DNA from: Candidatus Omnitrophota bacterium
GTDB lineage: Bacteria; Omnitrophota; Gorgyraeia; Zapsychrales; Zapsychraceae
Length of the DNA stretch: 64,000 nt
Direction of reading: 5' to 3'
Assembly: GCA_050250375.1 (NCBI GenBank)
Contig: JBFWOS010000001.1
Location: 27,346 to 91,345 of the forward strand
Below are positions 29,762-54,141 of this stretch, piece after piece; the stretch's first letter is position 1; the number at the start of each line of letters is the position of its first letter. The position numbers were made by a program, and so were the translations under genes. The notes under the pieces are model-generated. The model was not told the origin of the DNA and did no database searches. It worked only from the letters and a program-made list of their open reading frames with translations.

Positions 29762-30103
29762 TTAACTTTTGTTTAATTGTATCCACTTAAATTTCAGATG
29801 TTCGGAGAAACGACACCACTTTTTCCCTGTCTGTTCAATCCATTTCTGCGGGGACAAGACAAAATAATTGTTCCCCGCATAATTTCTAAACTGGTCGAAT
29901 TCGACCAGTTTAAAATCCGGGTTGTTTAACTTTTCCCACAGCCCTAAAAAGTCTATTGTACTTCTGCTGCGCATCCAGTTCTTAACGATGTCTGCCGGAG
30001 CGTCGCTATCGCGGTATTTCGCGATATCTGTTAAAGAAATGTAATCTAATTGTTTTATTAAAATTACCGATATCTCTTTACCTTGAACATCCAGCTTAAT
30101 CAT
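29762..30103 (-). CDS. KilA-N domain protein
   Basis: Starting at MIKLDVQGKEISVILIKQLDYISLTDIAKYRD...NWMRSRSTIDFLGLWEKLNNPDFK fits the KilA-N pattern. The longer track ORF extends into repeat B. Confidence 0.55.
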   Translation of the reverse strand: MIKLDVQGKEISVILIKQLDYISLTDIAKYRDSDAPADIVKNWMRSRSTIDFLGLWEKLNNPDFKLVEFDQFRNYAGNNYFVLSPQKWIEQTGKKWCRFSEHLKFKWIQLNKS

Positions 30104-30142
30104 TTTAGATCCTCTCTTTAATCGGTTAAGAGAGGAATCGAA

Positions 30143-30453
30143 GGGGATGAATATCTTTATACCATGCATGCGTGTGGGAGTCAATAAAACGTTCAATAAG
30201 GATCTTTTATAACCGGTTAAATACACTCAATTGCCTGAGTTTTTTAAAAAGGATTTTGTAGGTGGAAGGTAAGTTGGATTTTGGCATAATAAATTTTTTC
30301 TTTCACCTTAAACTTTAAACCTTAAACCCCTCGGTCCTGTTTTTTCTGGATATTTCTTCCTTCTTTCTTCTTACCTCTTACTTTCTTTCAGTTCTTTCCT
30401 TAATCCCAGATCCCTGTGCCCTGATCCCTAAGATAGGGCGCTGTCCCGTATCT
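30143..30453. repeat. leader/uORF repeat family B (contains an A-like core), copy 1
   Basis: GGGGATGAATATCTTTATACCATGCATGCGTGTGGGAGTC...GGATTTTGTAGGTGGAAGGTAAGTTGGATTTTGGCATAATAAATT... then a purine-rich tract and the AGATAGGG hairpin. About 270 bp repeated at 31665-31945 with a diverged middle. Directly upstream of the KilA-N gene. Confidence 0.8.
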
Positions 30454-30706: not shown

Positions 30707-31576
30707 TTACGGTGTGTGTTCCTGGATCTGCTTCTTACCCAACTTCTTACTCTGAGAAGTTTCAAGATAGTTGTCGTTGCTCATAATCTTCTTACCCGTT
30801 TTATGCTCCAGGTCTACGCGGGCTTTACCGGCGACACTGCCGCCGTCAATAGCGGCTTCTTTATTCTGTGTAAATCCCTGAGTATCTTTGCTACGGGTGA
30901 TGGCTACCGTCGATGCCTCCCCCAGCATGGAAAAAATCAACTCAAGATCATTCATATGATCCCGTAAATTCTCGCGTTCCAGGCCTTTGAGTTTTTTATA
31001 TTCCGACGGAGTAACGCCAAAAGCGGCTTTGGAAATCTCCGCGGTTAAAATCGCGTATTCCCCCTGATTTTTGATCCCCCGATTGTTCCATTCATCGGTC
31101 AGCTCTTCCCGAACAGCTATCCCGCGCACCCGCTTTTCGATCCAGGCATCCGAATACCCCTTGGCCTTATAGATGGCCCGCATTCTCTTCATCGCCAATT
31201 CCGGATCCTCAATCTCCTGAATCCGTTCATACCCGACCCTGGCCAGCCAGCGTTTGAAGGGTTCGGCCTTATGAGACGGGATGGATTGAATAATACGAAA
31301 AATGCCTTCCGTATTAGCGCAGTCCGTTGGGTATGATTTACCGTCAGAGGCAGGCAACTTCAGTTGGTGACAAATTGTCACCAACTCACTACCTTCTTCT
31401 CTTAACCTCTGGGCCAATTTGTTCCAATATTTCCTTGCCTTCTTGATATCTGATTGATCCGTTAAGACTTGCACTACATCAACCACCGAAAACCACCACT
31501 CATTGTTGTGAATGACTTTCCGGATCTTTGTTCCTTTAAAAACAGCGATTTTTGTTAAAGACATTTCGTTGGACAT
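30707..31576 (-). CDS. Bro-N domain antirepressor-like protein
   Basis: KIAVFKGTKIRKVIHNNEWWFSVVDVVQVLTD is Bro-N. C-terminal region resembles the phage antirepressor KilAC type. Confidence 0.75.
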   Translation of the reverse strand: MSNEMSLTKIAVFKGTKIRKVIHNNEWWFSVVDVVQVLTDQSDIKKARKYWNKLAQRLREEGSELVTICHQLKLPASDGKSYPTDCANTEGIFRIIQSIPSHKAEPFKRWLARVGYERIQEIEDPELAMKRMRAIYKAKGYSDAWIEKRVRGIAVREELTDEWNNRGIKNQGEYAILTAEISKAAFGVTPSEYKKLKGLERENLRDHMNDLELIFSMLGEASTVAITRSKDTQGFTQNKEAAIDGGSVAGKARVDLEHKTGKKIMSNDNYLETSQSKKLGKKQIQEHTP

Positions 31577-32028: not shown

Positions 32029-33054
32029 CTACACCCGCCAGGCATATTTCCCTTCCAACAATAAATTATTCAAATACACATCCGTCGCCGGATCAGGTTC
32101 GTCCCCTTGCGGGATAAAGACATCCGCGAGGTACCGGGCATATTTATCGGGGCGGCTGGAGCGCATCACGATCAGCGCTGACTCCTTTAACAGCGACTGC
32201 ACAAACACCTTGGCCGCGTCCCCCTCTTTCGTGCCGAGTTCCGGCGCGTCGATATCCCGCAGGCGCAGGGTTTCGGTGTGCTCAAGGCGGAACCCCAGAT
32301 CAATGCGGACCTTGAGTGTGTCAGCGTCCACCACCCGTTCAATCACCGCCGCGTACGTGAACAGGTCTTTGGTCCCGCGCTCACTGCGTTTGAGCGAATA
32401 GCGGTCGGCCGCAGGATCAAAAACACTTTCAACAATCTCATCCGCCTCGAATTTCGATACGGCGCGCGCCGAAAGACGCTTGTAGATGTTGAAACCCAGA
32501 TCCAGCAGCCACTCGCGTTCATCTTTGCCCGCGCCCAGCTGCGGCCGCTGCACCAGCCGGTACGTGTACAATTGCCCGCGGGCAGGCGTCAATAATTTTT
32601 GCGGGGGAGCCGATTCATTTTTAATCGCGGCCGGTGTTCCTCTTGTGGACTTGATCCTCGCGGCCAGTTCATCCGCGGACCAGGCATGCTCAATGACCTT
32701 CTGTTCAAACAGATCCCGCTCATCCTCGTCGGAAATAGCGATCAGTTTGCGGTAATGGGTCCAGCTGAATTGTGGGCGGCCGCCCACAATCTTCAGGCGG
32801 GGGTACGTCTGCACAAACCGCACACAGCGGTGCAGCGTTGATATTTCGATCCCAAGATCCTTGGATAATCGTTGGACAACCTCCGTCCCATACTCCGCGC
32901 GATCCTTATTTTGTTTAATGTGCGTCTGGATCAGGTTCCCCGTCTCCCAGTAAATCTTCACCTTCTCGGCTTCAATCTTCTGCTGGCCAAGGATCAGCGT
33001 CTGTTTGACTTTTTGAAAGAGGGATTTGTAGGTGGAGGGGAGTTTGGTGGTCAT
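32029..33054 (-). CDS. DUF1016 (YhcG N-terminal) domain fused to a thermonuclease (SNase-like) domain
   Basis: N-terminus (STYKSLFQKVKQTLILGQQKIEAEKVKIYWETGNLI...) matches the YhcG/DUF1016 N-domain. C-terminus (VVDADTLKVRIDLGF...LRLRDIDAPE...KYARYLADV) matches staphylococcal-nuclease-like thermonucleases. Confidence 0.65.
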   Translation of the reverse strand: MTTKLPSTYKSLFQKVKQTLILGQQKIEAEKVKIYWETGNLIQTHIKQNKDRAEYGTEVVQRLSKDLGIEISTLHRCVRFVQTYPRLKIVGGRPQFSWTHYRKLIAISDEDERDLFEQKVIEHAWSADELAARIKSTRGTPAAIKNESAPPQKLLTPARGQLYTYRLVQRPQLGAGKDEREWLLDLGFNIYKRLSARAVSKFEADEIVESVFDPAADRYSLKRSERGTKDLFTYAAVIERVVDADTLKVRIDLGFRLEHTETLRLRDIDAPELGTKEGDAAKVFVQSLLKESALIVMRSSRPDKYARYLADVFIPQGDEPDPATDVYLNNLLLEGKYAWRV

Positions 33055-33133: not shown

Positions 33134-34198
33134 TCACTTATTAATATTTTTGATTCTTTCTTTACCAGAAGTGAGGTTATTTAACACTTCAAAAAAATAA
33201 GTCTTACCGACTCCTTTCGAATAGGAGGAAGAGTGAAATCTTACTGGAGTTGTAAAGATAAGCTGCGTTTCTGGGTGACTTCTCCAAAAAAGATAGGATG
33301 CAAAAGCTTGCATTTTACTGCATTGTGGAGCTATCGCAACGTCATATTGGTACTTTATAACATTAAACTCTTCCTCAAGTTTCGAGAGAATTTCCTCAAA
33401 AAACAGTGTCGAAACTTCAACTTCACGGATATGCCATCGAGAAAGTAACTCAGCATGAATCGATTTTGAGAACTCTGTTCTCCATTGTAAGTTTTTGTGA
33501 GGAGATCTTCCCCAAATGGCAATTAATGTACTTGGAGCATACTGATTTATGAGTCCTTCTATTCTATGGGGCTCATAGCCAACAAAAATAACCAAACAGG
33601 TCTGAGATCCAGGCCTAAAATTCCCACCGAACTCGGGCAATATTTGGACTTCCTTTAGGCCTGCACTTTGAAGATAATCAGTCGCCAAATCAAATCTTTT
33701 TTTAACCAATTCCTTTTCTATTTTCTCAATATCCACTTTCTTAGGAAAATAATCTTTTGCCTCTGTGCAAACGATTGATACTTTCATCCCAATGGATAAG
33801 CATGAGTGAATGGAATATATAGCCCACAAATGGGTCATGCCAGATATGTCTATTAAGACAGATTCGTACGCAAATTCTGTTCGAATTCGCTCGATTTCTG
33901 ATTTTATTTTGAAGCATGTTTGGATTGGGCTATTTGAATTTACTACTAACTCTTTAGGATCTTCTCCCTGGATAGATTTAATCAAGTGTTTAAGTTTCTT
34001 ATAGTTGGGTTCATTATCTTGTTTCTGGCTCTCGTAACGAAATAACAACCATCGACCGATCTTACATTTTGCCTTCTTTAGACTTGCCGTAAATTTTAAC
34101 GCACGCTCTTCAAAACCTGCAGCACAGATGACTAGGTCTTCTGTTAGAGGCTTTTTATAATTAAATTGTAATGCCGTTATTTTGATGTCGTTCATCAT
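33134..34198 (-). CDS. hypothetical protein (last gene of RM-associated module)
   Basis: 354 aa, AT-rich. Start overlaps the stop of the upstream 951-aa gene by 4 nt. No domain recognised. Confidence 0.5.
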   Translation of the reverse strand: MMNDIKITALQFNYKKPLTEDLVICAAGFEERALKFTASLKKAKCKIGRWLLFRYESQKQDNEPNYKKLKHLIKSIQGEDPKELVVNSNSPIQTCFKIKSEIERIRTEFAYESVLIDISGMTHLWAIYSIHSCLSIGMKVSIVCTEAKDYFPKKVDIEKIEKELVKKRFDLATDYLQSAGLKEVQILPEFGGNFRPGSQTCLVIFVGYEPHRIEGLINQYAPSTLIAIWGRSPHKNLQWRTEFSKSIHAELLSRWHIREVEVSTLFFEEILSKLEEEFNVIKYQYDVAIAPQCSKMQAFASYLFWRSHPETQLIFTTPVRFHSSSYSKGVGKTYFFEVLNNLTSGKERIKNINK

Positions 34199-37050
34199 TT
34201 TTCCGGAAATAATGTGCCTTGCTGTGAGGCTACCTTCCCCTCAGCTAAATCTCGCAATTTTCTTCGATGTCGTTCAATAAACTTGGTAGGCTTTAGCAAA
34301 AGCTCTTCCAATCGATCCGTGCTTAGATATATATGATTTCTTACTCTATAAGTAATACCAAATGCAGGCGCGAATATCTTATTTAGGTCATATCGTCTTG
34401 ATAAGCCTATCTGAGCACGTGAAAATGTTACTCCCTCGTCTAACACTAATCCCCACTGAATTAACCCATCTAGAATTAATTTGGCTTCAGCGCTCAATGA
34501 ATCACCATCTAATCTTTCAAATGAAATGGTTTCATACCACCTATTTTCTTCCTCTGTCTTATATTCCACAAGATATCGTCTTGATAACTCACCTATCGAA
34601 CTTATAACTGAGAATAATGCATTACCCAAAGACGTATTGTCAACCTCACCCGGAATATTGGATAAAGCTTTGAATAGTGTCTTGGCATGAGTTCTCACGA
34701 CTACATCTTGATCTCTTAAAGAAACTTTTCCAGAACCGGGTTGTACGCTATTATGACTGAAAATTTGTTCGACCAACTCTAATAAAGTTCTTATGCTCCC
34801 ATGGGATATGCTTGAAATTATATTCCATCCGGCATAATAGGCTTTTCCCCGTGGAGGGCGTTTCTTTGTGGACTCTCCTTTTTTAGGTCTCCTAGCTCCT
34901 GGCTGACTTAACCCTCTCAGGAATTCTTCTGAGGATTGAGATTCCCCCAATATATTCACTATGCTTTCGTTAAAACCTGCCGACTTAAGCCTTGTATCAA
35001 TAACTCTGGCCATATACTTCGATAAATTCTTTGAAGTGTCTCGTTGAGTTTTTGTGGAGACTTCACCCAAATCAACATATGTTGCCTCATGCCTTGGATC
35101 AATGGCACGACCATCTGATGAATCTATCGTATACATGTATTTATCATATGTGATTTTAAAGCAGTGATTTTCTTGAACTGATCGTACTAATGAGTTTAGG
35201 ATTTTCTGCATTTCAAAATGCATATTACCTTGACTTGCATCATCAACCAAAATGAAAAACCTAGTACTTCGCAACTCGCCAAACAGCTGTTTTATTACAA
35301 AGAAAAAGGAATCCAAGTCTCTTTCATCAAAAAAATGACTAATTTTCCTTTCTCCAATCCTATACCAGTTAGCTATTATTGAACTCTCTTGCGCCACACA
35401 AACTGCAAGGATCTGATGAAATATGTTAATGGGATTTTCTGGGTCGACTAAAATTAATTTACCCAATCTTTCCTCAAGAAACTTAATTAAGAGTTGATAA
35501 TCATTAGGAATTTGAATTATGGGCCGCTTACTTACCGGATCGACACATTCTAAACCTTTCTTAATTTCCTCAAATGTTTTATTCCAAATCTTTAAAACTA
35601 AAATATGTTTCAATATTCTTTGAGTCTCTGGATCAAATATATCTTGACCAATGGCCTGTGGCGTAAACACCTTAAATTCTCCAAGTCTGCAAGTGAATAG
35701 AACACCAAATGAGTTCTGAAAATTATATCGAATTTGTTCAAGTCGTTCTCTAAGTTCTAGATCATCTTGGGATTGAATTATAACCTGTGGATTAAAAGCT
35801 AGTACTCTCAAATAATGAGATTTACCACAACCCCTAGGTCCGGAAATCAATGTATTTCCGAAGCGGGAAATGACATCAAACCTGGCTGCATCAGGCTCAA
35901 AAAGCTTATATAACTTACCTGCTGTAGGTATCCATTCTACACGTAACCATTCAAACGGCTTTTCAACTGGAACTTTAAAAAAATTTTCAGGCACTGAAGC
36001 TTCGGGCTGATTAAAAACACGCATTATTTCCTGGAATGAACTAAATTTATTCTCCATTAAATTCTGAAGGATGGAATACACCTTCTCACCCAATATATAT
36101 CTTGCGGGGTTTCCAGGACACTTCTCACATGCCAACAAGGCTACTTTTAGTAAATGATTTCTAAAATTCTCTAAGTCAGACTTGACTTCAAGTTGTGGCG
36201 ATGAAGAAGAAGGAATTCCAATAAAATCAATCAGCCAAAATTCTATATTTGACATCTCTACAGTTGAAACGCTTGTGAAATCAACCAAAATATTACGTTC
36301 GTGCAAATCTCCGTGTATTAATCCAGCTTTTTCAATCTCAGCCATAGCTCCACCGATTCTTTGTATAAATCGATCAAAAAATTTACTTGTTATATTCTCT
36401 TGAGATTTTAAAAATTCCAGAAATGTTTTTGCTGATACGGGAATATTTTCAAAAACCACACAATTCAGAACCACTTCTTTTCCCTCGGGCAACTCAATAT
36501 TCAATTCTCCCATTTCTATTACTTCGGGCAATGCTGGATGCTTTAATTTTGAGCGCATTACTAGAGCTCTTCTTAATTTCTCCCAAGAAACAGTTCCCGG
36601 CAAAAAAATCTTGAGAGTTCGGTCTCTGTCTAGCATTGTTTCTTTTGCTAGAAATGTATATGATGAGTTGCCTTTCCCAAGAAGGCTTTTAACCTCATAA
36701 CTATGTTTAAGTGGTTCACTAACTTTTTTGTCATCTGTTTTTACTGTTTTGCCAATAAGGAAATCTAAGGAAAATAGTTCAATAGTAAAATATTTATCGA
36801 TCCAATCGGCCAACTTAAACCCTTTATCTGTTCTAGTGATAATTCTATGCTTATCTAATAAATCTAACTCTGAGTCCAGTTGATCCCTACTTATTTCCAA
36901 ATTCTGCGCAATCTTACTTTCATTTTCATTCGGGAATTGATGCAAGTACAATAAAATTAAACGCTTAAAAGGATCACTCATCAAGGTAATTATATTCCCT
37001 TGACGCTCAGTACGTTTATTTGGTTCTTTCAAAATAATCCCAGAACTCAT
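34195..37050 (-). CDS. wHTH - protein-kinase-like - P-loop NTPase fusion protein (951 aa)
   Basis: N-terminal winged HTH. Glycine loop LLGKGNSSYTFLA, lysine in TLKIF, catalytic loop LIHGDLHERNILVD and WLIDF (Kdo/RIO/APH-like kinase fold). Then Walker A ISGPRGCGKSHYLRV and Walker B FILVDDASQ. Confidence 0.65.
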   Translation of the reverse strand: MSSGIILKEPNKRTERQGNIITLMSDPFKRLILLYLHQFPNENESKIAQNLEISRDQLDSELDLLDKHRIITRTDKGFKLADWIDKYFTIELFSLDFLIGKTVKTDDKKVSEPLKHSYEVKSLLGKGNSSYTFLAKETMLDRDRTLKIFLPGTVSWEKLRRALVMRSKLKHPALPEVIEMGELNIELPEGKEVVLNCVVFENIPVSAKTFLEFLKSQENITSKFFDRFIQRIGGAMAEIEKAGLIHGDLHERNILVDFTSVSTVEMSNIEFWLIDFIGIPSSSSPQLEVKSDLENFRNHLLKVALLACEKCPGNPARYILGEKVYSILQNLMENKFSSFQEIMRVFNQPEASVPENFFKVPVEKPFEWLRVEWIPTAGKLYKLFEPDAARFDVISRFGNTLISGPRGCGKSHYLRVLAFNPQVIIQSQDDLELRERLEQIRYNFQNSFGVLFTCRLGEFKVFTPQAIGQDIFDPETQRILKHILVLKIWNKTFEEIKKGLECVDPVSKRPIIQIPNDYQLLIKFLEERLGKLILVDPENPINIFHQILAVCVAQESSIIANWYRIGERKISHFFDERDLDSFFFVIKQLFGELRSTRFFILVDDASQGNMHFEMQKILNSLVRSVQENHCFKITYDKYMYTIDSSDGRAIDPRHEATYVDLGEVSTKTQRDTSKNLSKYMARVIDTRLKSAGFNESIVNILGESQSSEEFLRGLSQPGARRPKKGESTKKRPPRGKAYYAGWNIISSISHGSIRTLLELVEQIFSHNSVQPGSGKVSLRDQDVVVRTHAKTLFKALSNIPGEVDNTSLGNALFSVISSIGELSRRYLVEYKTEEENRWYETISFERLDGDSLSAEAKLILDGLIQWGLVLDEGVTFSRAQIGLSRRYDLNKIFAPAFGITYRVRNHIYLSTDRLEELLLKPTKFIERHRRKLRDLAEGKVASQQGTLFPEK

Positions 37051-37605: not shown

Positions 37606-38754
37606 TCACTTAGGCCTCATTAATAAAATAAGTTCGCAGGATTCCTTTCTGGAATCTCTTTTGGTGTTATTTCCACCCAGCGTGCTAAACCTCATCTTTA
37701 CTTTTTCCTTCTCTTGAATATCAAAAAATTGCATTGCTGTGTTTTTAACTTCTTCTCCTGATAAACCGTTGCTGCATTCCTCATTAGGAAAAGTAAATAT
37801 AACTGTAGCCCCGGACTCAGCAAGGTTACTTAAGAGATCAATTAACGCCTGTTTTGATTGTCCTTTATTGCTAAAGCTTGATTGAGGTCTTTTGGATATA
37901 TCAGGGTAGCGCCCCACACCGGAAACCTTTCCACACTCTTTATTGGCAATGGTTTCCAGGACATGATAAAAGCGGCTGTATTGAACTCCGGAATAAGGCG
38001 GGTCCACAAAGACAAGATCGGTGGGTCTCAATTTCTTGGCCTCGTCAATAGCATTTGCCACGCGAGCCTCGCCAATAGTCCTTGCATGCAACTTTGATAC
38101 TTCCGACAATGTTCTTTTGCACACATCAACCGGGTCTTTTTGCCAGGATTCCAACAAAAATTTCTTGGCCGTTCTGGTGGGTTGGAACGGCTGTGCCGTG
38201 TGTCCGGGAGAAGCCGCGCACCGACTAGCAGCCATGATGACGGCAGCTAAGCTCACCTTTTGATGAGTCAATTCTTGCGGAACATATTTTAATAAATAGT
38301 CAAAGGTCAGCGCTTGCTGCGGGCTGTAATAATGCCCTCCATAGGCATTCCAGATGGGGCCAATTGTTGACCGCTCTTCACAGAGTTCACGACAATCTTT
38401 AACATATTGACCCATCCTGCGCTTATCAAGCTTTGCGCTAAGCTTTTCAGCGGATATCCATAACTTCGATTCCCGCCTTAAATCGTCCACCCGATTAAGC
38501 CAATTTTCAGTAAGCTCCGATTCTTCAATAACCCTATTTCTTCCAATAATTGATTCCGTCAGGATAACGGAGTATTTCTGCAAATCTATTGCAAGCACCG
38601 GTAAGTCGGTGTGTCGAGCCACATGACACGCAACAGCCCCTGCCCCGCAAAAAAGATCCACAATCCGTTTAGCGGATTTGGCTTCTTCATCAAGCAACTT
38701 TCCCAAACCATTGGTGAGCATATACCGTTTTGAGCCCATGTATTTCATATACAA
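37606..38754 (-). CDS. Dam-family DNA N6-adenine methyltransferase with C-terminal extension
   Basis: YMGSKR at the N-terminus, DLFCGAGAV SAM motif, and DPPY catalytic motif. 382 aa versus about 280 for canonical Dam. Confidence 0.8.
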   Translation of the reverse strand: MYMKYMGSKRYMLTNGLGKLLDEEAKSAKRIVDLFCGAGAVACHVARHTDLPVLAIDLQKYSVILTESIIGRNRVIEESELTENWLNRVDDLRRESKLWISAEKLSAKLDKRRMGQYVKDCRELCEERSTIGPIWNAYGGHYYSPQQALTFDYLLKYVPQELTHQKVSLAAVIMAASRCAASPGHTAQPFQPTRTAKKFLLESWQKDPVDVCKRTLSEVSKLHARTIGEARVANAIDEAKKLRPTDLVFVDPPYSGVQYSRFYHVLETIANKECGKVSGVGRYPDISKRPQSSFSNKGQSKQALIDLLSNLAESGATVIFTFPNEECSNGLSGEEVKNTAMQFFDIQEKEKVKMRFSTLGGNNTKRDSRKESCELILLMRPK

Positions 38755-40031
38755 ATTCCTGTTAAGCCAATACGTTCACAACCGGAAAGTATCAAGAGTT
38801 CCTTTGATAATTTGGTACGCAACTCAAATACATTGTTAATCAAAGATGCATCTTGGTTAACATTATTTATAGTATCGTTAACTTCACTCCACATATCTAA
38901 CAAAGGATCGGTACTTGTATTTTCCCAAAGACCTCGATCTATACCCAATGGTTCCCACCAAAATTCTAAATCTTTTTTAGTTGTAGCTGTACATTCCATC
39001 AAGCGAGAGACTGACCCCGTAGATAACCTTAAGAGCAACATCGCTCGACATAACATTTGTATATGATATTTTTCGTCAGTGTAAGTTCCATTTTTTCTTG
39101 CTTCTATTAAAAGACGCGATCCAGGCAGTTTATTAGTTGGCCCCGATAATAAAGTACTTAACCTCTGTGATTCATTCTTAGAAATCCCCAAATTCTGCAT
39201 GACTTTAATTAATTGCTTTTTTGGAATACTGCTTTTTGAGCCATGTAGAGATCTAAAATATTTTTGCAGGGCTCCCCTAAACAACAAAAAATCTATAACA
39301 AAACTATTATTTTTTGAAGGGGTAAATGAATTCCACATTTCTGTAATTAAATTAAGCACTTCCTTAATATTTAAAGAGTTATATGGGGTTAAGTCAGAAG
39401 GTCTATAGCTAGCCTCATTTCTTACAGTTCTATCTTTTTCTAATATTTTCAAATCATGAATCCAATTTTTCAGCCAATCTTCAGCAAGCCATCCAATTGG
39501 AGAGCTATACCCTCCCGTTAATTCAGTAAACCAATCTTTAAGACAAATTCCTTCAGGTCTAATTATTTCCTCAATTAAATGGATAGCATTTGGTGATTTG
39601 GCCCAAACTTCAAATGCTTCTACTACTGCGACATGTGTTCCCTTTCCCGAAATTTTATGAATTCTTGAACTATCGATAGTAAAATGAATTTTATCAAATA
39701 TTCCAATTCCCTCTGCTGCCAAGAGCGACATAACCGCCCTTAACTCTGCATAATAGGCAAAATGTTTAGTCCGACTCCTGTCGCCCAATGAATAAGATAT
39801 TAGTGCTTTCCCCAGAAAATCCCACCCATCTAAACAATGCAAAGGTGTGGAGGCAGCTATATATTTTTTTATATCCCGCCTAATGTTTCCGGCCTTACAG
39901 TCTATTGAAATTTTTTTTATACAATTCTTTCTGTATCGATTATTAAAAATCCATCTATTAAGCTTGAAATCCTTTTTTAGAAGTTCAAAATTTTTCTCAG
40001 ATTCTATTCTTGAAAATGCAGAATATGGCAT
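38745..40031 (-). CDS. hypothetical protein
   Basis: 428 aa, AT-rich, translationally coupled to its neighbours. No domain recognised. Confidence 0.5.
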   Translation of the reverse strand: MPYSAFSRIESEKNFELLKKDFKLNRWIFNNRYRKNCIKKISIDCKAGNIRRDIKKYIAASTPLHCLDGWDFLGKALISYSLGDRSRTKHFAYYAELRAVMSLLAAEGIGIFDKIHFTIDSSRIHKISGKGTHVAVVEAFEVWAKSPNAIHLIEEIIRPEGICLKDWFTELTGGYSSPIGWLAEDWLKNWIHDLKILEKDRTVRNEASYRPSDLTPYNSLNIKEVLNLITEMWNSFTPSKNNSFVIDFLLFRGALQKYFRSLHGSKSSIPKKQLIKVMQNLGISKNESQRLSTLLSGPTNKLPGSRLLIEARKNGTYTDEKYHIQMLCRAMLLLRLSTGSVSRLMECTATTKKDLEFWWEPLGIDRGLWENTSTDPLLDMWSEVNDTINNVNQDASLINNVFELRTKLSKELLILSGCERIGLTGICI

Positions 40032-40039
40032 AGTATTTT

Positions 40040-41545
40040 TTACCTATTAAAACCTAAATGTTCAAAAACATTTTTGGCAACCGTTCCCAATTCTGTTTTT
40101 TCAACCATCAAATGTCTCAAAAGTTGACGACGAAACTCTCTATAACCACTTCCTCCTCGAAAAGCTAATTTTCGCAATCTTTCATTTTCCTCTAAATTAG
40201 GAGCACCTGATGATCTCCAATCAAACTTTGAGAGGGACTGAGTTAAATTATCAATAAAATCTATAATTTTCTTTTTACGTTTTAGATCTTTAATGGCTTC
40301 GTTTACTGAAATTTCGGCATCTGGGACATCTGATAATTTCCATGATTTAAGGTTGAGACTTACTGCTTTTTCGAAGAAAATGTCGTTGGTCACATTCAAC
40401 ACAACTGAAACACCTTGATCATTATTGAGCAATGAATGTGGCCCATCAAATGCTGGGTCATTATTCTTTTGCTTTTTATATTTAATACCCCTTAAATCTT
40501 TTGCCCATCCCGAGTTATTGTCTTCAACAAAATATTTTATTCTGTTCCAAAGATATATCAGGAAGGCCGCTTGTTGTGTCCTTGTCCAGGGGATAATGAT
40601 CTTGTGTTCCCCGACTCTTGCGCCATAAAGACCCCCTATTGAAACACCTTTACCTTCGTATGACTTTATATAACTTTTGAGCAAAGCTCTAATCCAAGCA
40701 GCTTGGGTAACAGCCCCAGCGCCACCCTCCCCTAACATATTTATTCGATGATACCAAACACTTTCCTGTTCGTACCATAATGACTCAGTAATTTCCTGCG
40801 CTCTTGCCTCTCTATATACTTTGTGCCCCTCAAATCTATCAAGCCAATCTTCCGTTCGCAACAATGGATAAAGGTCATAGGCTAAACTTGGATTAATCCT
40901 CTTTGGTTTTATATTAATCGTCCAAAATAAATATGCCTGCCAACTAATATCTAACTCATGAAAAGCCACAACAGGAAGCTGATAGTTTTCATCATCCAAC
41001 TTGTCATCAAAGGCCAATAACCGATGTTGTCCATCTATTATTTCTATTGGATGTTTCTTCTTTGGCTTCCAGTTTTTCCCTTTAAAACTTCTAGGCAATA
41101 TAACTTCAATGTCTGTTGAATTCTCTTCAATTTCAATTAAATCATTCTTGTCAACAGCCATATCGTTTCTTTCATCAGCCTTCCCTAAAATATTTACAAC
41201 TATCGCTGTAGGAAGCCACCCTGGTTTTCTCAAATTATTAAAAACTTCTTCTTTCCTTTTCGAACCTGATAATTCTGACCATGGATATCCATATTTAATG
41301 TACTCACGTATATTTGCTGAACGAGATGGCTCATGTTGTCTTTGTATATGTTTATCACTGGTTCTTGAAATTCCAGATTTAATTCCGCGTCTATATACAC
41401 CTGATAATAGTTTTAACTTCTTAGCGGAAAGAGAAAAAACATAAAAGAACTCTTTTGGCTTCTTTCTTAAGTTTTCTTTCTTAAATTCGATACCTTTCCA
41501 TTCATTCAACCACTGATGGATTTTCAATGCCTTTATTTTTTCCAT
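40040..41545 (-). CDS. DGQHR-domain protein (DndB/DpdB-like, ParB/Srx superfamily)
   Basis: IIDGQHRLLAF motif. 501 aa. Confidence 0.75.
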   Translation of the reverse strand: MEKIKALKIHQWLNEWKGIEFKKENLRKKPKEFFYVFSLSAKKLKLLSGVYRRGIKSGISRTSDKHIQRQHEPSRSANIREYIKYGYPWSELSGSKRKEEVFNNLRKPGWLPTAIVVNILGKADERNDMAVDKNDLIEIEENSTDIEVILPRSFKGKNWKPKKKHPIEIIDGQHRLLAFDDKLDDENYQLPVVAFHELDISWQAYLFWTINIKPKRINPSLAYDLYPLLRTEDWLDRFEGHKVYREARAQEITESLWYEQESVWYHRINMLGEGGAGAVTQAAWIRALLKSYIKSYEGKGVSIGGLYGARVGEHKIIIPWTRTQQAAFLIYLWNRIKYFVEDNNSGWAKDLRGIKYKKQKNNDPAFDGPHSLLNNDQGVSVVLNVTNDIFFEKAVSLNLKSWKLSDVPDAEISVNEAIKDLKRKKKIIDFIDNLTQSLSKFDWRSSGAPNLEENERLRKLAFRGGSGYREFRRQLLRHLMVEKTELGTVAKNVFEHLGFNR

Positions 41546-41579
41546 AGTTTTCCCCTATATTTGTTATTCTACGGATTAT

Positions 41580-43103
41580 TTATGTTCTCTCAAACGCCTC
41601 CCGCAACACCGCTCGCATCAGCATTTCGGAGTGGTCTTTGCGTTCGGCGACTTGTTTATCAAGCTCACCGACCATGATCGTAAACTTATCCACCAGGTTG
41701 ACGATAACTTGTTGTTCAATCACAGAAGGGACAGGAACTACAAACTGTTCAAGATTGTATTTAGGAAGACCTTCCCGTCCAGCACCTGTAGTAGATTCGA
41801 ACATCACCTTTTGGAATTGCGGTGATAAAACTATTTTGTGCATAAATCCTTTAGACATTAAAATACTTCGAATAATACAAACGTGTTGACTTACATTTCC
41901 TTCTCTGAAATCTACTGGAATTAATGCACACCGCCCAAGAGATCCGCCAGTAATATTTAACAGTAAATCGCCAGCAATGACAGCTGTTCCTTTCATCTGT
42001 TTATGTACTTCGGAGGATATAAATTTTATATCGTCACAATCTAAGCCATCGTCATGAATATTCTGAGACCTAAAAAATAAAATTCCTTTTGTTGAGTAAT
42101 TACTCCCTTTCGGAGTACTTCCTGAACCAATCTTCGAACAAAGATCACCCAACCGACACCATTCCCACCCCTCCGGCAACTCAAAGGGTTTTTCTTCATT
42201 GGTTATTGGTGATAATGGTTTTTCTTTTTTAATTTTCCCTTCCTTAATCAGTCGTTCTTTCTCTGCCTTAATTCTCTCAAGCAACTTTGAGGCATGGTTT
42301 TCGCCGCTGATGAGTTTAGGATTTTCTTTGCGCCATTGGGCTGTCAATTTACCTTCAATGGCTTCCTGCAAAACAGATTGACGAAGATTGTAAAGCAAAG
42401 CTTCTTGAGTCTCGACTTCATCTTTAAATAACTGTCGTAAACAATTTATATTCTTAACTCTATTGAATTTCAATTTCGCTGTATGAAGGATTTCACTCCT
42501 TGAAAGCTCTCCTGTATTCTTATAATGTACAATCTTATTTTGCACGTCCACAGAACAGGCAGGAAACATTAGCTGTTTCATTTTCTCCGCATTTACATTT
42601 GGTTGCGCTGTCCCATTTTTCATTTCAAGAATTTGATTCCAAAAAAGATACGAATTCAAAAAAAGATAAATATATTCGGGATTAAAGCTGGCATTAACTG
42701 TCAACCGAATCAAGTAACTTGCGAACACGCAATTTGTTGGAATATTTTTGATAAATACTGTTTTACCAGTTGTACCACCTGTTCGCGTTATTAAAATATC
42801 CTCTTCATTTAATGAATACTTTTTTAGCTCTTTACAGTCACAAAAAGGTACAGACGGCCAATCTATTACGCCCTCAGTAATGTCGGTAATACGGAGCAAC
42901 TTGCTATTCCCATCAAGCTTTGCAGATGTAGTATAACCATACTGGGTCTTAGTTAGAGCATCCCCCAAAGGAATAAAATTCTTGTAAGTATCAGCAATGA
43001 TTTTCATTAATACCGTGTTATGTAGCTGCCTTAACTCTTCTTCGTTAGATTTAATAAATGTAAGTTTGCGATAGCCATACTCAGGAACAAAAGAATTAAC
43101 CAT
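41580..43103 (-). CDS. hsdS: Type I restriction-modification specificity subunit
   Basis: Two target-recognition domains separated by a conserved central coiled-coil (ELPEGWEW...). Conserved C-terminal region. Confidence 0.85.
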   Translation of the reverse strand: MVNSFVPEYGYRKLTFIKSNEEELRQLHNTVLMKIIADTYKNFIPLGDALTKTQYGYTTSAKLDGNSKLLRITDITEGVIDWPSVPFCDCKELKKYSLNEEDILITRTGGTTGKTVFIKNIPTNCVFASYLIRLTVNASFNPEYIYLFLNSYLFWNQILEMKNGTAQPNVNAEKMKQLMFPACSVDVQNKIVHYKNTGELSRSEILHTAKLKFNRVKNINCLRQLFKDEVETQEALLYNLRQSVLQEAIEGKLTAQWRKENPKLISGENHASKLLERIKAEKERLIKEGKIKKEKPLSPITNEEKPFELPEGWEWCRLGDLCSKIGSGSTPKGSNYSTKGILFFRSQNIHDDGLDCDDIKFISSEVHKQMKGTAVIAGDLLLNITGGSLGRCALIPVDFREGNVSQHVCIIRSILMSKGFMHKIVLSPQFQKVMFESTTGAGREGLPKYNLEQFVVPVPSVIEQQVIVNLVDKFTIMVGELDKQVAERKDHSEMLMRAVLREAFERT

Positions 43104-44529
43104 TCTGAACTGCTTCCTTAAGTTTCTTTAAAAGTTCTTCACTCTTGCAAAACGAATCATGAAGCGTGGCGACCAGCTCTGCGCTTGAATAGACGTGTTC
43201 CGCTTCAGGCATGTGTGGATTTTTAATGTCGAGGTTATACCCATTAGTTGCTATCGTTTCGATCGAAACTTTCCAGACCTGTTCGCTTTTTTTACGTTTC
43301 TTCCACCATTTCTTTAGACCATCGAATTCACTTTTCTGTATCGGTTTAGTCTTATTATAAGCCTTTACCCCTTCCGGCAATTTGTGTTCCCAATACCAAA
43401 CCTCTTTTGTAGGCTTGCCTTTGTCGAAGAATAGAAGATTTGTCGCAACGCTCGCATAAGGTTGAAAAACCGAATTAGGCAGACGCACTATCGTATGTAA
43501 ATTGCAATTCTCCAATAGATGTTGACGTATCCGTTGCTTAACTCCGTCTCCCGTCAGCGATCCGTCCGGTAGTACAATACCTGCGCGCCCCCCGTCTTTG
43601 AGATAACGGATCATCAACATTAAGAAAAGATCGGCACTTTCTGCGGTGCGGAAATTCTGCGGAAAATTGGTTTCGACTCCATCCGTAACCGAAGCACCAA
43701 AAGGAGGATTGGCAAGGATGACATCAACCCGGTCTTTTTGTCCGATGGATGTATATTCGCGATTAAGGCTATCAGTATAATCAATATTGGGGACTTCAAT
43801 GTCATGGAGGATAAGATTAGTGACGGCCAACATAAAAGGAAGCGGCTTAAATTCCATTCCGTGAATCGTTTTTTCAAGTTCCTTCAGGTCATCAACGCCC
43901 TTAACATCCTGCGTGCGAATATTCTCGATTGCACTCGTTAAGAAACCGCCGGTGCCGCAGGCGGGATCCAAAACTTTCTCACCTAACCTTGGATTTACCA
44001 TTTCCGTAATAAATTCGGTCAGAGCGCGCGGGGTGTAGAATTCCCCGTAATTGCCGGCGTTTTGAAGATCGCGCAGGATGGTCTCATAAATATCGCCAAA
44101 AACGTGACGGTCCTCGGCTTTGTTAAAGTCAATCTGGTTTAACGCGTTAATCACCTGGCGGAGGATGGTGCCGTTTTTCATATAGTTGTTTGTGCCGTCA
44201 AATATTTCACGGACAATAAGCGCGCGTTTATTGCCGGTGCTCACGTCTAAATTCTTTAGTTGAGGAATTAGTTTGCCATCAATAAAACTTTTCAGCTCAT
44301 CCCCCGTCATCCCCTCATCATCAGCGGCCCAATTACGCCATTGTAATTCCTTGGGGATCACCGAAACATATTTATTATTGATTAACTCCATTTCCTGATC
44401 TTTATCATCCAAAACCTTGAGGCTGATCATCCAGCCCAATTGTTCGATGCGCTGGGCGTCTCCAGACACGCCGGGGTCTCTGCGCATAATGTTTTGTAAA
44501 CTTTTAATGATACCGCCAAGATTCTTCAT
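43096..44529 (-). CDS. hsdM: Type I restriction-modification DNA methyltransferase subunit
   Basis: HsdM N-domain, DPACGTGGFL SAM motif and NPPFG catalytic motif. Confidence 0.9.
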   Translation of the reverse strand: MKNLGGIIKSLQNIMRRDPGVSGDAQRIEQLGWMISLKVLDDKDQEMELINNKYVSVIPKELQWRNWAADDEGMTGDELKSFIDGKLIPQLKNLDVSTGNKRALIVREIFDGTNNYMKNGTILRQVINALNQIDFNKAEDRHVFGDIYETILRDLQNAGNYGEFYTPRALTEFITEMVNPRLGEKVLDPACGTGGFLTSAIENIRTQDVKGVDDLKELEKTIHGMEFKPLPFMLAVTNLILHDIEVPNIDYTDSLNREYTSIGQKDRVDVILANPPFGASVTDGVETNFPQNFRTAESADLFLMLMIRYLKDGGRAGIVLPDGSLTGDGVKQRIRQHLLENCNLHTIVRLPNSVFQPYASVATNLLFFDKGKPTKEVWYWEHKLPEGVKAYNKTKPIQKSEFDGLKKWWKKRKKSEQVWKVSIETIATNGYNLDIKNPHMPEAEHVYSSAELVATLHDSFCKSEELLKKLKEAVQNG

Positions 44530-44538
44530 TAACTCTCC

Positions 44539-46944
44539 TTACGCAACGGCATAAAGCTCATGCTCCAACTCTTTGATGGCCAGGATGTATTGATCACGGC
44601 CGCCAAAGGATTGAATAATTTCCGTTGGTGTTCCCATTTGATTAAACGGCTCGATTTTTAAGACTGAAAGGTCTTCAATATTCTCAATGCCTTCATCCGC
44701 ATATTTATCCAACAGGGCGTTGAGAACGGCACGCGCTTTGTTGCCGTATTTGGTGAAATAATTGCGTTTTTTAACTCCTTCGGCTCTTTCTTTGCGTGTG
44801 AGAGCCGGCATATCCCAGGCGATATGACAAATCAGATCAAAAATATCTAAATCTTTCTTTGTTTCCTCCAACAAATTCTCCAGAATAATGCCTTTCGATT
44901 CTAGTTCTTCGACAATCGCTTGTTTTTTATGAGTGCTATTCCACCTGGCGAGAAATTCGTTCAAGGTGTGAAACTCTTTTATAATACTTCTTTTCGTATA
45001 GTCAATTAAGGTCTCGGTCATCAGTTTGCCGTTGGCATCCAAATGCTGGACACGTTCATTCAAAATGGACACATCCACGCCAGCGACAAAGATTTTTGGA
45101 CTCGGATCAGATGTTATTGGTCCCCCCCCCACAATTTCAGGCGGAGGATCATAGATGGTAGTTCCATCTCCTTCAAAATCAACAGGCTCATCGGTTTCAG
45201 GATCGATGACTTCCTGATCATCTAAAGGATCAATAACTACATCTGTTATCTCCTCATCTCCATTAATTTCTTTGATCATGACCGGATCTCCGTCAAACTT
45301 AGAGTCGGCAAAAAGATTGGTGACACTGCGAAAATCCATAATCGTAAAATATGTTTTATCGTATACTTCGTTAATACGCGTTCCGCGGCCGATAATCTGT
45401 TTGAACTCGGTCATGGATTGAATATTTGACTCAAGAACAATCAATTTGCAGGTTTGCGCGTCAACACCGGTGGTCATCAATTTTGAAGTGGTGGCAATGA
45501 CAGGATAAGTTTCTTCGGGATTAATAAAATTATCCACTTCGCGCTTACCTTCGTCATTATCGCCGGTTATACGCATGACATATTTATAGTTCTCCAAAAC
45601 CAAATCTGAATTTTCAATGGCCAGGGCTTGTCGCATCCGTTCGGCATGTTCGATATCTACACAAAAAACAATGGTTTTGTCAAAACGATTTGTCTTTCTT
45701 AAAAACTCAGTTATCTTCTTGGCCACTATTTTTGTCCGATCATCAATAACCAAATTTTTGTCAAAATCTTTAGTGTTATAGACCCGGTCTTCGACCTCGT
45801 TACCGTCTTTGTCTTTCTTGCCTAATTCCGGGCGCCAGCCTTCCAGATCGGTATTGATTCCGACTCGGATAACCTTGTAAGGCGCCAGAAACCCGTCCGC
45901 GATACCCTGCTTGAGCGTGTAGGTGTAAACAGGTTCACCAAAATAATCAATATTAGAAATTGTCTTTGTTTCCCGCGGGGTTGCAGTAAGTCCGATATGT
46001 GTAGCGGATTTAAAATAATTAAGAATCGCTTTCCACGCGTTGTCAGACGCCGCGCTTCCGCGATGGCACTCATCAACAACCACTAAATCAAAAAAATCAG
46101 GACGGAATTGTCTATACGCGTCCTTATCCTCATTATCATTTGTCAGTCCTTGATAAAGGGCTAAATAAATTTCGTAGGCTTTGTCAATCTGGTGTTTTTT
46201 GATAACAGTCATTTTTTCTTTAAAATGCTTAAAATCATTGCGCTTGGTTTGATCAATCAGAATGTTACGATCCGCCAGAAAAAGTATTCGCTTTTTCCTG
46301 CCGTTTTTCCAAAGCCGGTAGATGATTTGAAACGCCGTGTAGGTTTTTCCTGTGCCGGTGGCCATGACAAGGAGCACTCTATTCTGCCCGCGGGCGATGG
46401 CTTCAACAGTTCGATTAATCGCGATTTGCTGATAGTAGCGCGGGGAACGTCCTGAACCATCGTAAAAATAGTCGAATGAAGCGGCTTGTTCCTCCTCGGG
46501 AGTTTCAATATTTTTAAACTTTTTGTATATTTGCCATAATTCAGCGGGGGAAGGAAAATTGTCCAGGGAGTATTCTTTTTCGATCGGCATCGTGAGTCCG
46601 GAAAAATCATGCTGGATAAAGCCGTCGCCGTTAGAACTAAAGGCGAGCGGAACATCCAATATCTTTGCGTATCTTAAGGCTTGTTGTAACCCGGAACCTA
46701 CTGAATGGTTGTTATCTTTTGCTTCAATGACAGCGATGGGAATATTGGGTTTAAGATAGAGAATAATGTCGGCACGTTTTCGTTCGCCACGGACCGATTT
46801 TTTACCCTTAACAAAGATACGGCCGTCAGTAAAATACACTTCCTCACGAATCTGTTTTGATAAGTCCCAACCCGCTTTAAGTATGGCCGGCAAAATGAAT
46901 TGGGTGCAGATATCGCGTTCCGAGAGTTCTTTTTTGTTGGTCAT
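44539..46944 (-). CDS. hsdR: Type I restriction enzyme R subunit (EcoEI-like C-terminus)
   Basis: MTNKKELSERDICTQFILPAI N-terminal nuclease domain, TGTGKT and DECHR helicase motifs, and an EcoEI_R_C-like C-terminal domain. Confidence 0.9.
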   Translation of the reverse strand: MTNKKELSERDICTQFILPAILKAGWDLSKQIREEVYFTDGRIFVKGKKSVRGERKRADIILYLKPNIPIAVIEAKDNNHSVGSGLQQALRYAKILDVPLAFSSNGDGFIQHDFSGLTMPIEKEYSLDNFPSPAELWQIYKKFKNIETPEEEQAASFDYFYDGSGRSPRYYQQIAINRTVEAIARGQNRVLLVMATGTGKTYTAFQIIYRLWKNGRKKRILFLADRNILIDQTKRNDFKHFKEKMTVIKKHQIDKAYEIYLALYQGLTNDNEDKDAYRQFRPDFFDLVVVDECHRGSAASDNAWKAILNYFKSATHIGLTATPRETKTISNIDYFGEPVYTYTLKQGIADGFLAPYKVIRVGINTDLEGWRPELGKKDKDGNEVEDRVYNTKDFDKNLVIDDRTKIVAKKITEFLRKTNRFDKTIVFCVDIEHAERMRQALAIENSDLVLENYKYVMRITGDNDEGKREVDNFINPEETYPVIATTSKLMTTGVDAQTCKLIVLESNIQSMTEFKQIIGRGTRINEVYDKTYFTIMDFRSVTNLFADSKFDGDPVMIKEINGDEEITDVVIDPLDDQEVIDPETDEPVDFEGDGTTIYDPPPEIVGGGPITSDPSPKIFVAGVDVSILNERVQHLDANGKLMTETLIDYTKRSIIKEFHTLNEFLARWNSTHKKQAIVEELESKGIILENLLEETKKDLDIFDLICHIAWDMPALTRKERAEGVKKRNYFTKYGNKARAVLNALLDKYADEGIENIEDLSVLKIEPFNQMGTPTEIIQSFGGRDQYILAIKELEHELYAVA

Positions 46945-47175: not shown

Positions 47176-47616
47176 TCATCGGTCAACCTTTTCTTCGTCT
47201 CCAGGACACGCCGCAAACTCGCAATCCGGCGGGATTCTTCCTACGTAACTGCCGTCGGCGCATTGTTTGGCGTCCATTGTGCACGCATGCGTGCTCTTGG
47301 TGTTATGAGCAGGAGTGCAGCTGGATATAAATAAAGAAAGAAGAAGGAAGAAGAAAGAGGGGAGAAATTTATTGACCGTTGGGCTATTGGGTATATGGGT
47401 AAATGGGTATATGTGTTTATGCGGGGTTATGACTGTTGGGCGGATAAAGTCACACGTCACAAAGTCACATGTCACATGTGACTTGTGTCCTGTGACGTGT
47501 GACATTGCTTGACCACCGGTCACTGGTCCCTGATCCCTATTTTTTCCGCAAATTTTCATACAGAACCTTTCCTTCACGGTCAAAGATCGTGTCGCTGAGG
47601 ATCGCATTGTTTTCAT
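47176..47616 (-). CDS. hypothetical; Cys-rich C-terminal peptide preceded by repeat-C-encoded lipoprotein-signal-like segment
   Basis: The ORF spans repeat C. The repeat encodes ...NKFLPSFFFLLLSLFISSC (lipobox-like), followed by TPAHNTKSTHACTMDAKQCADGSYVGRIPPDCEFAACPGDEEKVDR. The true start is unclear. Confidence 0.3.
   Translation of the reverse strand: MKTMRSSATRSLTVKERFCMKICGKNRDQGPVTGGQAMSHVTGHKSHVTCDFVTCDFIRPTVITPHKHIYPFTHIPNSPTVNKFLPSFFFLLLSLFISSCTPAHNTKSTHACTMDAKQCADGSYVGRIPPDCEFAACPGDEEKVDR
47331..47506. repeat. repeat family C, copy 1 (open in one frame)
   Basis: Purine-rich tract, TTGACCGTTGGGCTATTGGGT..., then the perfect palindromes GTCACATGTGAC and GTGACGTGTGAC. The second copy is at 48160-48316. 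Confidence 0.8.
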
Positions 47617-50236: not shown

Positions 50237-50632
50237 TTAGTCTGACTTATTTATCAATGACTTTAGGATTTGCGCAAACCCCTCTTTATCAAGATTTCCT
50301 GTAGCCAGTTTCATCATTCCATCGTACAATTTCTGATCCTGGTCAAGAATTTCAATGCCGTTTAATTCAAGAAATACCAGAGCAGCTGCCAGCCCTGTTC
50401 TTTTATTCCCATCGATAAAAGGCTGATTCTGGGAAATATGAAACGCATAGGCGGCAGCCTTCATGCTTAGATCGCCATGGAGGTAATCCCCCTGAAATGT
50501 TGCCTGCGGTTGTGACAACGCCGATTGAAGCATTTCCATATCTCTGAGTCCGGGTTTGCCGCCATATAAATCGAGTTGGTTTTGATGGATTTCAATGATT
50601 TCGGCGAGGGTCAGAAAAATAAATTCATTCAT
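50237..50632 (-). CDS. doc: Doc (death-on-curing) family toxin, Fic fold
   Basis: FIDGNKRTG matches the Doc variant of the Fic motif. Confidence 0.85.
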   Translation of the reverse strand: MNEFIFLTLAEIIEIHQNQLDLYGGKPGLRDMEMLQSALSQPQATFQGDYLHGDLSMKAAAYAFHISQNQPFIDGNKRTGLAAALVFLELNGIEILDQDQKLYDGMMKLATGNLDKEGFAQILKSLINKSD

Positions 50633-53169: not shown

Positions 53170-53197
53170 GTACGGGCCGTTCGCGAACGGCCCCTAC
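53170..53197. repeat. REP-like palindrome GTACGGGCCGTTCGCGAACGGCCCCTAC
   Basis: Same 20-mer as at 1824-1843. Sits between ORF6N #3 and the downstream MTase gene end. Confidence 0.6.
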
Positions 53198-53898: not shown

Positions 53899-54141
53899 CC
53901 ACAGCGCGCTGCGGTTGATGTGGTCTTTCGGATTGGGGACATTCCCTCCGACGGGTACGGTCCATTCCCCGGGTTGATCCGGAACAATCCCGGACGGGCC
54001 CAGGCGCCTGGCGCGGCGTTCGCACGCGCGCGTCTGATGCTGACGGCAGGCCTTGCGGAACCTTAAAAAACAATAATAAGTAAACGGAAGATACGGCGGG
54101 TATACATCCTTGCGGTCGTTTTTCATGGGCGCGTTTTTGTT

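Follow-up and report, generated by a model that had tools for sequence, protein, structure and literature searches.

A kinase-ATPase hub protein in a four-gene, methylase-linked candidate defense cassette of Candidatus Omnitrophota

Several described defense systems share parts with the locus studied here. BREX type 2 (Pgl) is linked to a methylase and needs a kinase and an ORC/Cdc6-type ATPase (PMC12839542); its components are the PglX methylase, the PglW kinase, the ORC/Cdc6 ATPase PglY/BrxC, and PglZ. MADS (mad1-8) is a methylase-linked multigene defense that requires the kinase MAD6 together with ATPases (preprint 10.1101/2023.03.30.534895), and the effector of retron-Eco1 (Ec86) hydrolyzes NAD(P)+ and is controlled via DNA methylation of its multicopy single-stranded DNA (msDNA) partner (PMC12673091). 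We analyzed a 64,000-nucleotide stretch of the Candidatus Omnitrophota contig JBFWOS010000001.1 (referred to as the window) and focused on a 951-amino-acid (aa) kinase-ATPase protein encoded there, which we call the hub. Its gene belongs to a cassette of four, in the order DNA methyltransferase, NDT-like N-glycosidase, hub, and tandem-CARF protein (Table 1). The cassette looks like a new restriction-modification (R-M)-style antiviral system, and a rare one. We infer, with modest confidence, that the hub is the sensor or switch subunit of this methylation-linked defense cassette.

The hub is 100% identical to hypothetical protein AB7S78_12600 (NCBI, from a Candidatus Omnitrophota metagenome-assembled genome). 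An initial annotation of the same DNA had described it as an unusual fusion of a winged helix-turn-helix (wHTH), an atypical kinase-like domain, and a P-loop NTPase, and had guessed that it might be a defense sensor. The open reading frame (ORF) proved to be uninterrupted, with an ATG start. It lies on the minus strand, which that annotation had left unstated; a plus-strand reading was ruled out by stops throughout. The domain reading and the defense guess were partly supported, being largely right and incomplete; what matters most is that four genes form a conserved cassette. A role as a defense sensor fits the conserved gene context; the picture of an unusual, lone protein does not, since conserved partner genes flank the hub gene on both sides. 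Nor is the architecture an oddity, as a kinase-ATPase(-CARF) candidate is already catalogued in PADLOC-DB.

That candidate, CARF6--CARF_STK_AAA (PDLC01925), has the same three modules as the cassette: a Ser/Thr-kinase core, an AAA+ ATPase, and a CARF domain. It is the nearest catalogued entity, and by sequence comparison the window cassette is its split, divergent, wHTH-bearing, and NDT-associated relative. The model name suggests that CARF6 stems from the 2020 CARF/SAVED census. Two fused relatives of the hub, P0106 and P0107, match PDLC01925 over its whole length (E=1e-32 to 1e-35). The match of the window hub is limited to profile positions 321-376, around Walker A (E=1.5e-5), and the C-terminal profile positions 876-1184 are matched by the separate window CARF gene (E=5e-11). 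Unlike PDLC01925, the window has these modules split over two genes, carries an extra N-terminal wHTH, and has an NDT-like gene upstream. In the literature we found no description of a system that unites a kinase-ATPase, a CARF protein, an NDT-like enzyme, and a methylase; the 2020 CARF/SAVED census fell outside the coverage of that search, so earlier notice of the methylase or NDT linkage is possible.

Membership in the described systems was considered and rejected in three cases. The hub scored 18.6 bits against the NCBIfam PglW model (cutoff, 990), and the partner genes of BREX were not found: PglZ, PglX, BrxA-C, and BrxL were not among the Pfam, PADLOC, or NCBIfam matches of the cassette and neighboring genes. 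Unlike in BREX, a single polypeptide of 951 aa holds both the kinase and an active ATPase, three families of small, type II-like enzymes supply the methylases, and the CARF and NDT partners are not known from that system. The best NCBIfam match of the hub kinase N-lobe is MAD6 (E=1e-9); this match covers 75 residues and reaches 37.5 bits, where the cutoff is 460. MADS differs in that it comprises eight genes, has a methylase and specificity pair resembling that of type I systems, and lacks CARF and NDT components. MAD7 and MAD8, both mandatory in the MADS detection model, were not among the PADLOC matches of the cassette genes. For PD-T4-6, the matches were confined to the kinase N-lobe, and the partner genes were not found.

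Likeness to retrons and to CRISPR effectors is confined to single partners. The NDT-like domain is common to the cassette, the type II-A effector of retron-Eco1 (Ec86), and the St85 family effector, including the position of the SPGSxxE glutamate. Unlike retron-Eco1, the cassette has no reverse transcriptase or msDNA, the NDT-like protein lacks the C-terminal DNA-binding half of the effector, and its score against the retron effector NCBIfam model was 16.2 (cutoff, 100). The window CARF protein differs from Can1 and the type III CRISPR CARF effectors in carrying no effector domain, and sequence identity to them is 8-14%. The genes scanned around the cassette and the called genes of eight related loci yielded neither Cas10 nor CD-NTase, nor was a CRISPR array detected there.

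Partner genes and their linkage to the hub

The comparison drew on 116 related loci, taken from both genomes and metagenomes, of which 91 were distinct at 95% identity; linkage was counted only where the contig allowed the test. The NDT-like gene lay directly upstream of the hub gene in 75 of 75 testable loci, and the tandem-CARF gene lay directly downstream in 76 of 77. Among the 43 loci with full context, a DNA methyltransferase was found within 2.5 kb of the hub gene in 39 and within 5 kb in 42. A DNA methyltransferase is thus consistently linked to nonmethylase genes, as is expected of an R-M-like system. The methylases fall into three mutually unrelated families, verified with Pfam: C5 (PF00145; 24 loci), D12 (PF02086; 11 loci), and N4/N6 (PF01555; 7 loci). 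Each family tracks one clade of the hub protein. The position of the window methyltransferase is taken by a methylase in most related loci. The window enzyme itself belongs to a divergent D12 lineage, which the D12 profile of the sister loci matches weakly. A Vsr mismatch endonuclease also is present in several loci with a C5 methylase.

The cassette genes are closely packed in the window. The ATG of the hub gene overlaps the stop of the NDT-like gene (ATGA), with AGGAGG just ahead of the hub start, and the ATG of the tandem-CARF gene likewise overlaps the hub stop codon (ATGA). The D12-class methyltransferase gene lies 16 nucleotides (nt) upstream of the NDT-like gene. A scan for promoters and terminators gave counts that were not above those obtained with shuffled sequence.

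In a search of the PDB, the profile of the NDT-like family matched chain 7v9x_C (E=7e-10), the retron Ec86/Eco1 effector, in its N-glycosidase domain, and 26 of 29 family members matched the PADLOC model NDT_II-A. Pfam returned no match for the NDT-like proteins or their N-terminal extensions. E60, E101 (within SPGSxxE), and C155 are invariant in the family. Three NDT-like proteins are extended at the N terminus by a domain of about 200 aa (GGDxGxD...QHK) that matches the LmuA and Avs2 effector-nuclease models, an extension that would fit an effector role. The gene downstream of the hub encodes a CARF-fold sensor; Can1 was the best match in a fold search, and the protein matches the PADLOC CARF6 models (E=2e-25), a set that includes CARF6--CARF_CARF_CARF.

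Two more divergent groups bear on which of these genes form the core. In a distant clade, the hubs are 815-826 aa long and have no N-terminal wHTH, and the order methylase, hub, tandem CARF is kept (hhalign probability for the tandem CARF, 99.8%). One locus of this clade (L117) carries an 851-aa ResIII helicase downstream; another (L118) has just the methylase, hub, and CARF genes. In fused relatives of 1209-1211 aa, hub and CARF form one chain (hhalign, 99.6% to the CARF profile). Because both the distant and the fused clades keep these three components, the methylase, kinase-ATPase, and tandem CARF represent the deep core, with the NDT-like gene an add-on of the window's clade. The small genes beside the distant-clade and fused hubs (208 aa in L117 and 207 aa in L119) were considered as NDT-like candidates and rejected upon comparison.

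The same observations bear on a Thoeris-like wiring, in which the NDT-like enzyme would make an NAD- or nucleotide-derived signal, the CARF protein would sense it, and the hub kinase, with its ATPase, would kill by phosphorylation. Kinases of the Stk2 and PD-T4-6 type shut the cell down by phosphorylation, and the hub kinase core matches the PD-T4-6 and MAD6 models. This wiring would suit a CARF sensor for which no cyclase was detected in the window neighbors or inspected loci, and NDT-like enzymes do act on NAD(P)+. The direct fusion of CARF to the hub in relatives points the same way, and in L118, with its three genes, the hub itself may be the output. The distant clade, however, has a CARF protein without an NDT gene, so the ligand is not generally NDT derived. 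In addition, LmuA/Avs2-type nuclease fusions such as those on some NDT proteins usually mark an effector, not a protein that makes a signal, and the sole characterized relative of the NDT domain is a retron effector. We consider the Thoeris-like wiring unlikely and place the NDT-like enzyme, where it is present, on the output side.

Domain architecture of the hub

A confident AlphaFold2 (AF2) model, built on 104 homologues, resolved four modules in the hub: an N-terminal wHTH, a kinase core, an AAA+ ATPase, and a second wHTH. Together with a match of Pfam PF24389 (ORC-CDC6-like) to aa 365-718 (150.7 bits against a cutoff of 27; E=8.4e-44), the model bears out the fusion of wHTH, kinase-like domain, and P-loop NTPase and adds the C-terminal wHTH, which had not been called before. 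The N-terminal wHTH evolves fastest, with a mean pairwise identity of 27% versus 47-59% in the remaining domains. The hub protein belongs to no NCBIfam family (June 2026), and searches of the PDB found no solved structure of the hub family.

All motifs quoted in the initial annotation were present: GKGNSS at aa 125, TLKIF at aa 145 (containing K147), HGDLHERNILVD at aa 246, and IDF at aa 274 in the kinase part, and GPRGCGKS at aa 404 and ILVDDA at aa 600 in the NTPase part. None is there by chance, as the catalytic residues are invariant in the 104 homologues. In the kinase, the invariant residues are G127, K147, H246, D248, L249, H250, N253, D275, and D292; G125 of the Gly-rich loop is kept in 99/104. 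In the ATPase, they are G404, G407, G409, K410, D603, D604, Q615, and K632.

The NTPase is an AAA+ ATPase of the ORC/Cdc6-STAND type, the type found in ORC subunits and STAND/NLR proteins, followed by the second wHTH. It has the traits of that family: strand 2 is followed by a helical insert, and the C terminus forms a winged-helix domain. The insert is large (aa 471-592) and separates strand 2 from the Walker B strand; a helical lid then follows. Walker A reads G404-P-R-G-C-G-K410-S. All 104 homologues have T or S at position 634, the sensor-1 polar residue, and the lid arginine R754 (sensor 2; motif HGSxR) is kept in 93/104.

The initial annotation had assigned the kinase-like domain to the Kdo/RIO/APH type. 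Domain searches asked whether the HGDLH region might not be a kinase fold at all; a bilobal kinase fold was found at aa 113-350, and the kinase reading survived. The proposed kinship did not. With the single hub sequence, Pfam Pkinase scored 24.2 bits, under its cutoff of 31.7, Kdo was barely over its own (21.9 versus 21.3), and RIO1 was marginal. The hub-family profile matched canonical Ser/Thr kinases, namely, ULK1 (E=1.5e-17), PknB (about 1e-14), PknA, and StkP, and a precomputed PF00069 hit is present on many hub homologues. The Kdo/RIO/APH-type assignment was rejected, since its hidden Markov model matches are marginal and the profile and fold searches favor Hanks-type kinases. The hub kinase is closest to the Hanks-type Ser/Thr kinases and, in the model, is atypical only through a cut-down C-lobe.

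That C-lobe is one reason to doubt that the kinase-like domain phosphorylates proteins. It could instead have a regulatory role based on binding or hydrolyzing ATP, like RIO and Bud32, or be a kinase of small molecules or nucleic acids; the protein would then be purely a nucleotide-driven, DNA-binding switch. About 11 residues separate D275, the DFG equivalent, from the helix at 292-310 in the position of alpha-F, and the activation loop, APE motif, and G-I helices were not found in the AF2 model. The acidic residue of alpha-C is not conserved, there are matches, all marginal, to Kdo, RIO1, and Bud32, and JGI labels hub homologues as Bud32-like. We nevertheless judge this alternative to be quite improbable, for the phosphotransfer residues K147, D248, N253, and D275 and the Gly loop are invariant in the 104 sequences, and the best matches in both sequence and structure are active Hanks-type protein kinases.

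Island setting and distribution

The cassette lies inside a low-GC island (approximately positions 30000-54000) with a GC content of 36-45%, compared with 50-55% in the flanks. The low GC content and a nearby tRNA-Val gene suggest that this is a horizontally acquired defense island. The restriction-island context proposed earlier holds in that a complete type I R-M operon is situated directly upstream of the cassette in this low-GC region. The operon is followed, with no real gap, by a DGQHR/DndB-like gene, and a 428-aa ORF with no family match overlaps the start of the cassette methylase gene by 10 nt. From the type I R-M genes through the cassette, two or three systems may thus be transcribed together as a single long unit. 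Other genes of the island include a KilA-N gene and members of four PADLOC candidate defense families (PDC-S02, PDC-S13, RhuM/PDC-S05, and PDC-S23). In related loci, integrases, insertion sequence elements, and other R-M systems are found near the hub gene.

Three further genes were observed at or outside the edges of the island. A methyltransferase-like gene (310 aa) at the far edge has a partial match to MADS mad2 (E=4e-12). Just outside the island is a 1271-aa ORF with no Pfam or PADLOC match, and 4 nt separate it from the preceding gene, a member of the endonuclease/exonuclease/phosphatase family.

Table 1. Features of the window and of related loci. Positions are those of the window unless a related locus (L number) is named.
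Feature	Position	Strand	Remarks
D12-class N6-adenine DNA methyltransferase, 382 aa	37606..38754	minus	Pfam MethyltransfD12 E=1e-15; PADLOC MTase_II 2e-23
NDT-like (retron type II-A effector-like) N-glycosidase, 180 aa	37047..37589	minus	
Hub protein ORF, 951 aa	34195..37050	minus	AF2 pLDDT 88.9, pTM 0.85
Hub N-terminal wHTH, aa 1-95	36766..37050	minus	AF2: H-H-H-H + beta-hairpin
Hub protein-kinase-like domain, aa 113-350	36001..36714	minus	Gly loop G125/G127, K147, HGDLHxxN 246-253, D275 (IDF), D292
Hub ORC/Cdc6-like AAA+ ATPase, aa 377-830	34561..35922	minus	Walker A 404-411, Walker B D603/D604, T/S634, lid R754
Hub C-terminal winged helix, aa 838-940	34231..34539	minus	AF2; highly conserved
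Tandem-CARF protein, 353/354 aa	33134..34198	minus	GFEER/DISGM in first domain, GYEPxR/QCSKMQ in second
Type I R-M operon region	38745-46944	minus	hsdR 44539-46944, hsdM 43096-44529, hsdS 41580-43103
DGQHR/DndB-like gene	40040-41545	minus	
428-aa ORF	38745-40031	minus	
KilA-N gene	29762-30226	minus	
PDC-S13 (Bro-N)	30707-31576	minus	
PDC-S02 (DUF1016_N + SNase-like)	32029-33054	minus	
RhuM/PDC-S05	47537-49111	minus	With MORN repeats
PDC-S23	50237-50632	minus	
tRNA-Val	26920-26994	plus	
Methyltransferase-like gene	53194-54126	minus	
1271-aa ORF	21082-24897	minus	
Endonuclease/exonuclease/phosphatase-family gene	24902-25888	minus	
Distant clade	L117 4859-12084; L118 4898-9547		N6_N4 methylase, 815-826-aa hub, tandem CARF; no NDT
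Fused clade	L119 898-7020; also L120		Methylase, kinase-ATPase-CARF fusion, 207-aa unknown protein, NodS-like S-adenosylmethionine methyltransferase
C5 methylase + Eco29kI-type endonuclease	L005/L028 5563-7667; L020 5181-6991		
NDT-like proteins with extra N-terminal domain	L003 8994-10001; L004 8811-10001; L008 6910-7983		

The hub family is rare, with 417 clusters (50% identity) at E<=1e-3 and 49 at 1e-30 among 1.84 billion representatives. Its carriers are scattered over the Acidobacteria, Armatimonadota, Alphaproteobacteria, Bacteroidota, and Verrucomicrobia and over the Halobacteriales and ANME archaea. Cultured carriers include Novosphingobium kunmingense, Bosea vestrisii, Caulobacter segnis CC215, and Nioella sediminis. 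The plasmid and phage collections contained no hub copy, and viral contigs gave four partial hub matches, all of them weak.

An island of this kind also might carry the cassette for its own upkeep, as a maintenance or replication/epigenetic-control module of a mobile island, whose ORC/Cdc6-like protein and methylase would govern replication or gene expression, or as a mere addiction module. Orphan methylases often regulate, the island is low in GC and adjoins a tRNA gene, and archaeal replication initiators share the architecture of an ORC/Cdc6-type AAA+ domain with a winged helix. The identity of the hub to archaeal Orc1/Cdc6 initiators and to the Walker-type ATPases PABY2304 and SSO1545 is 9-14%. 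Unlike in the initiators, the ATPase of the hub is fused to a kinase and an extra wHTH, and the context is one of defense and not of replication. Replication genes were not linked to the hub gene in the related loci examined, which counts against an origin-binding role, and no partition or conjugation genes accompany the cassette there. The lack of plasmid or phage copies and the weak, partial nature of the viral matches also speak against such a module. The hub is accompanied by a CARF sensor and by a toxic effector of the retron type, the neighbors of the cassette are R-M and PADLOC candidate defense genes, and the exchange of methylase families with the remainder kept is a hallmark of R-M-like systems. 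We regard a nonimmune role as very improbable.

Proposed role in defense

The architecture of the hub, its intact kinase and ATPase motifs, the strict linkage of the cassette, the hub-CARF fusion, the three methylase families, and the defense-island setting are established. Under the favored reading of the hub as the sensor or switch of a defense cassette, the methylase would mark host DNA as self. The hub would bind DNA through its winged helices and ORC/Cdc6-like ATPase and act as an ATP-dependent switch that responds to unmodified, and hence foreign, DNA. The tandem-CARF protein may bind a small ligand of the nucleotide type and gate the hub, and the kinase would relay the signal by phosphorylating itself, its partners, or other targets. 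In the window's clade, the NDT-like enzyme would be the output, hydrolyzing NAD(P)+ or nucleotides and halting phage growth in the manner of the retron-Eco1 effector.

Several points weigh against this reading. A cyclase (Cas10 or CD-NTase) was found neither among the window neighbors nor in the inspected related loci, which leaves the CARF ligand without an evident source. The NDT gene is missing in the distant 815-826-aa clade; the NDT-like enzyme is therefore not a universal output. Three chemically different methyl marks would have to be read, and which module could do this is unclear. One full-context locus, L004, has no methylase. In three alphaproteobacterial loci, an Eco29kI-type restriction endonuclease accompanies the C5 methylase, so that in these loci the methylase may be part of a conventional type II R-M system adjoining a triad of NDT-like, hub, and CARF genes. 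The kinase has no conserved alpha-C glutamate (the acidic residues of helix 156-166 vary among the 104 homologues), and since the substrate-binding part of the C-lobe is missing as well, the truncated kinase might serve as an ATP-binding switch and not as a protein kinase. Finally, we found no experimental description of any family member in the literature.

A bolder form of the favored reading would dispense with the cyclase altogether. The cassette would then be a self-contained immune pathway that combines R-M logic with CARF signaling without a Cas10 or CD-NTase cyclase: a swappable methylase would define self, the ORC/Cdc6-like ATPase-kinase would read whether incoming DNA is modified, and the tandem CARF would sense a noncanonical ligand. 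Candidates for that ligand are an NAD-derived product of the NDT-like enzyme and the levels of S-adenosylmethionine or S-adenosylhomocysteine, which would report a phage attack on methylation. We hold this stronger proposal to be doubtful. If it is true, the cassette would represent a new class of defense system and bring with it a new class of ligand for CARF domains.

We infer for the cassette a methylation-linked kinase/ATPase defense with an unusual, cyclase-less CARF arm. Should it be a working defense system, CARF sensors would act outside CRISPR and CBASS, which raises the question of what they sense without a cyclase. The cassette also would give BREX type 2 and MADS a compact counterpart made up of four genes. 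To our knowledge, how the kinase and the ORC/Cdc6-type ATPase of those systems read DNA methylation is still obscure. A single-chain kinase-ATPase of 951 aa with small partners is far more tractable for biochemistry and cryo-electron microscopy, and the cultured carriers make direct testing possible. If the reading is correct, the three unrelated methylase families set on one conserved core would constitute a natural experiment in how nonnuclease systems read modification.

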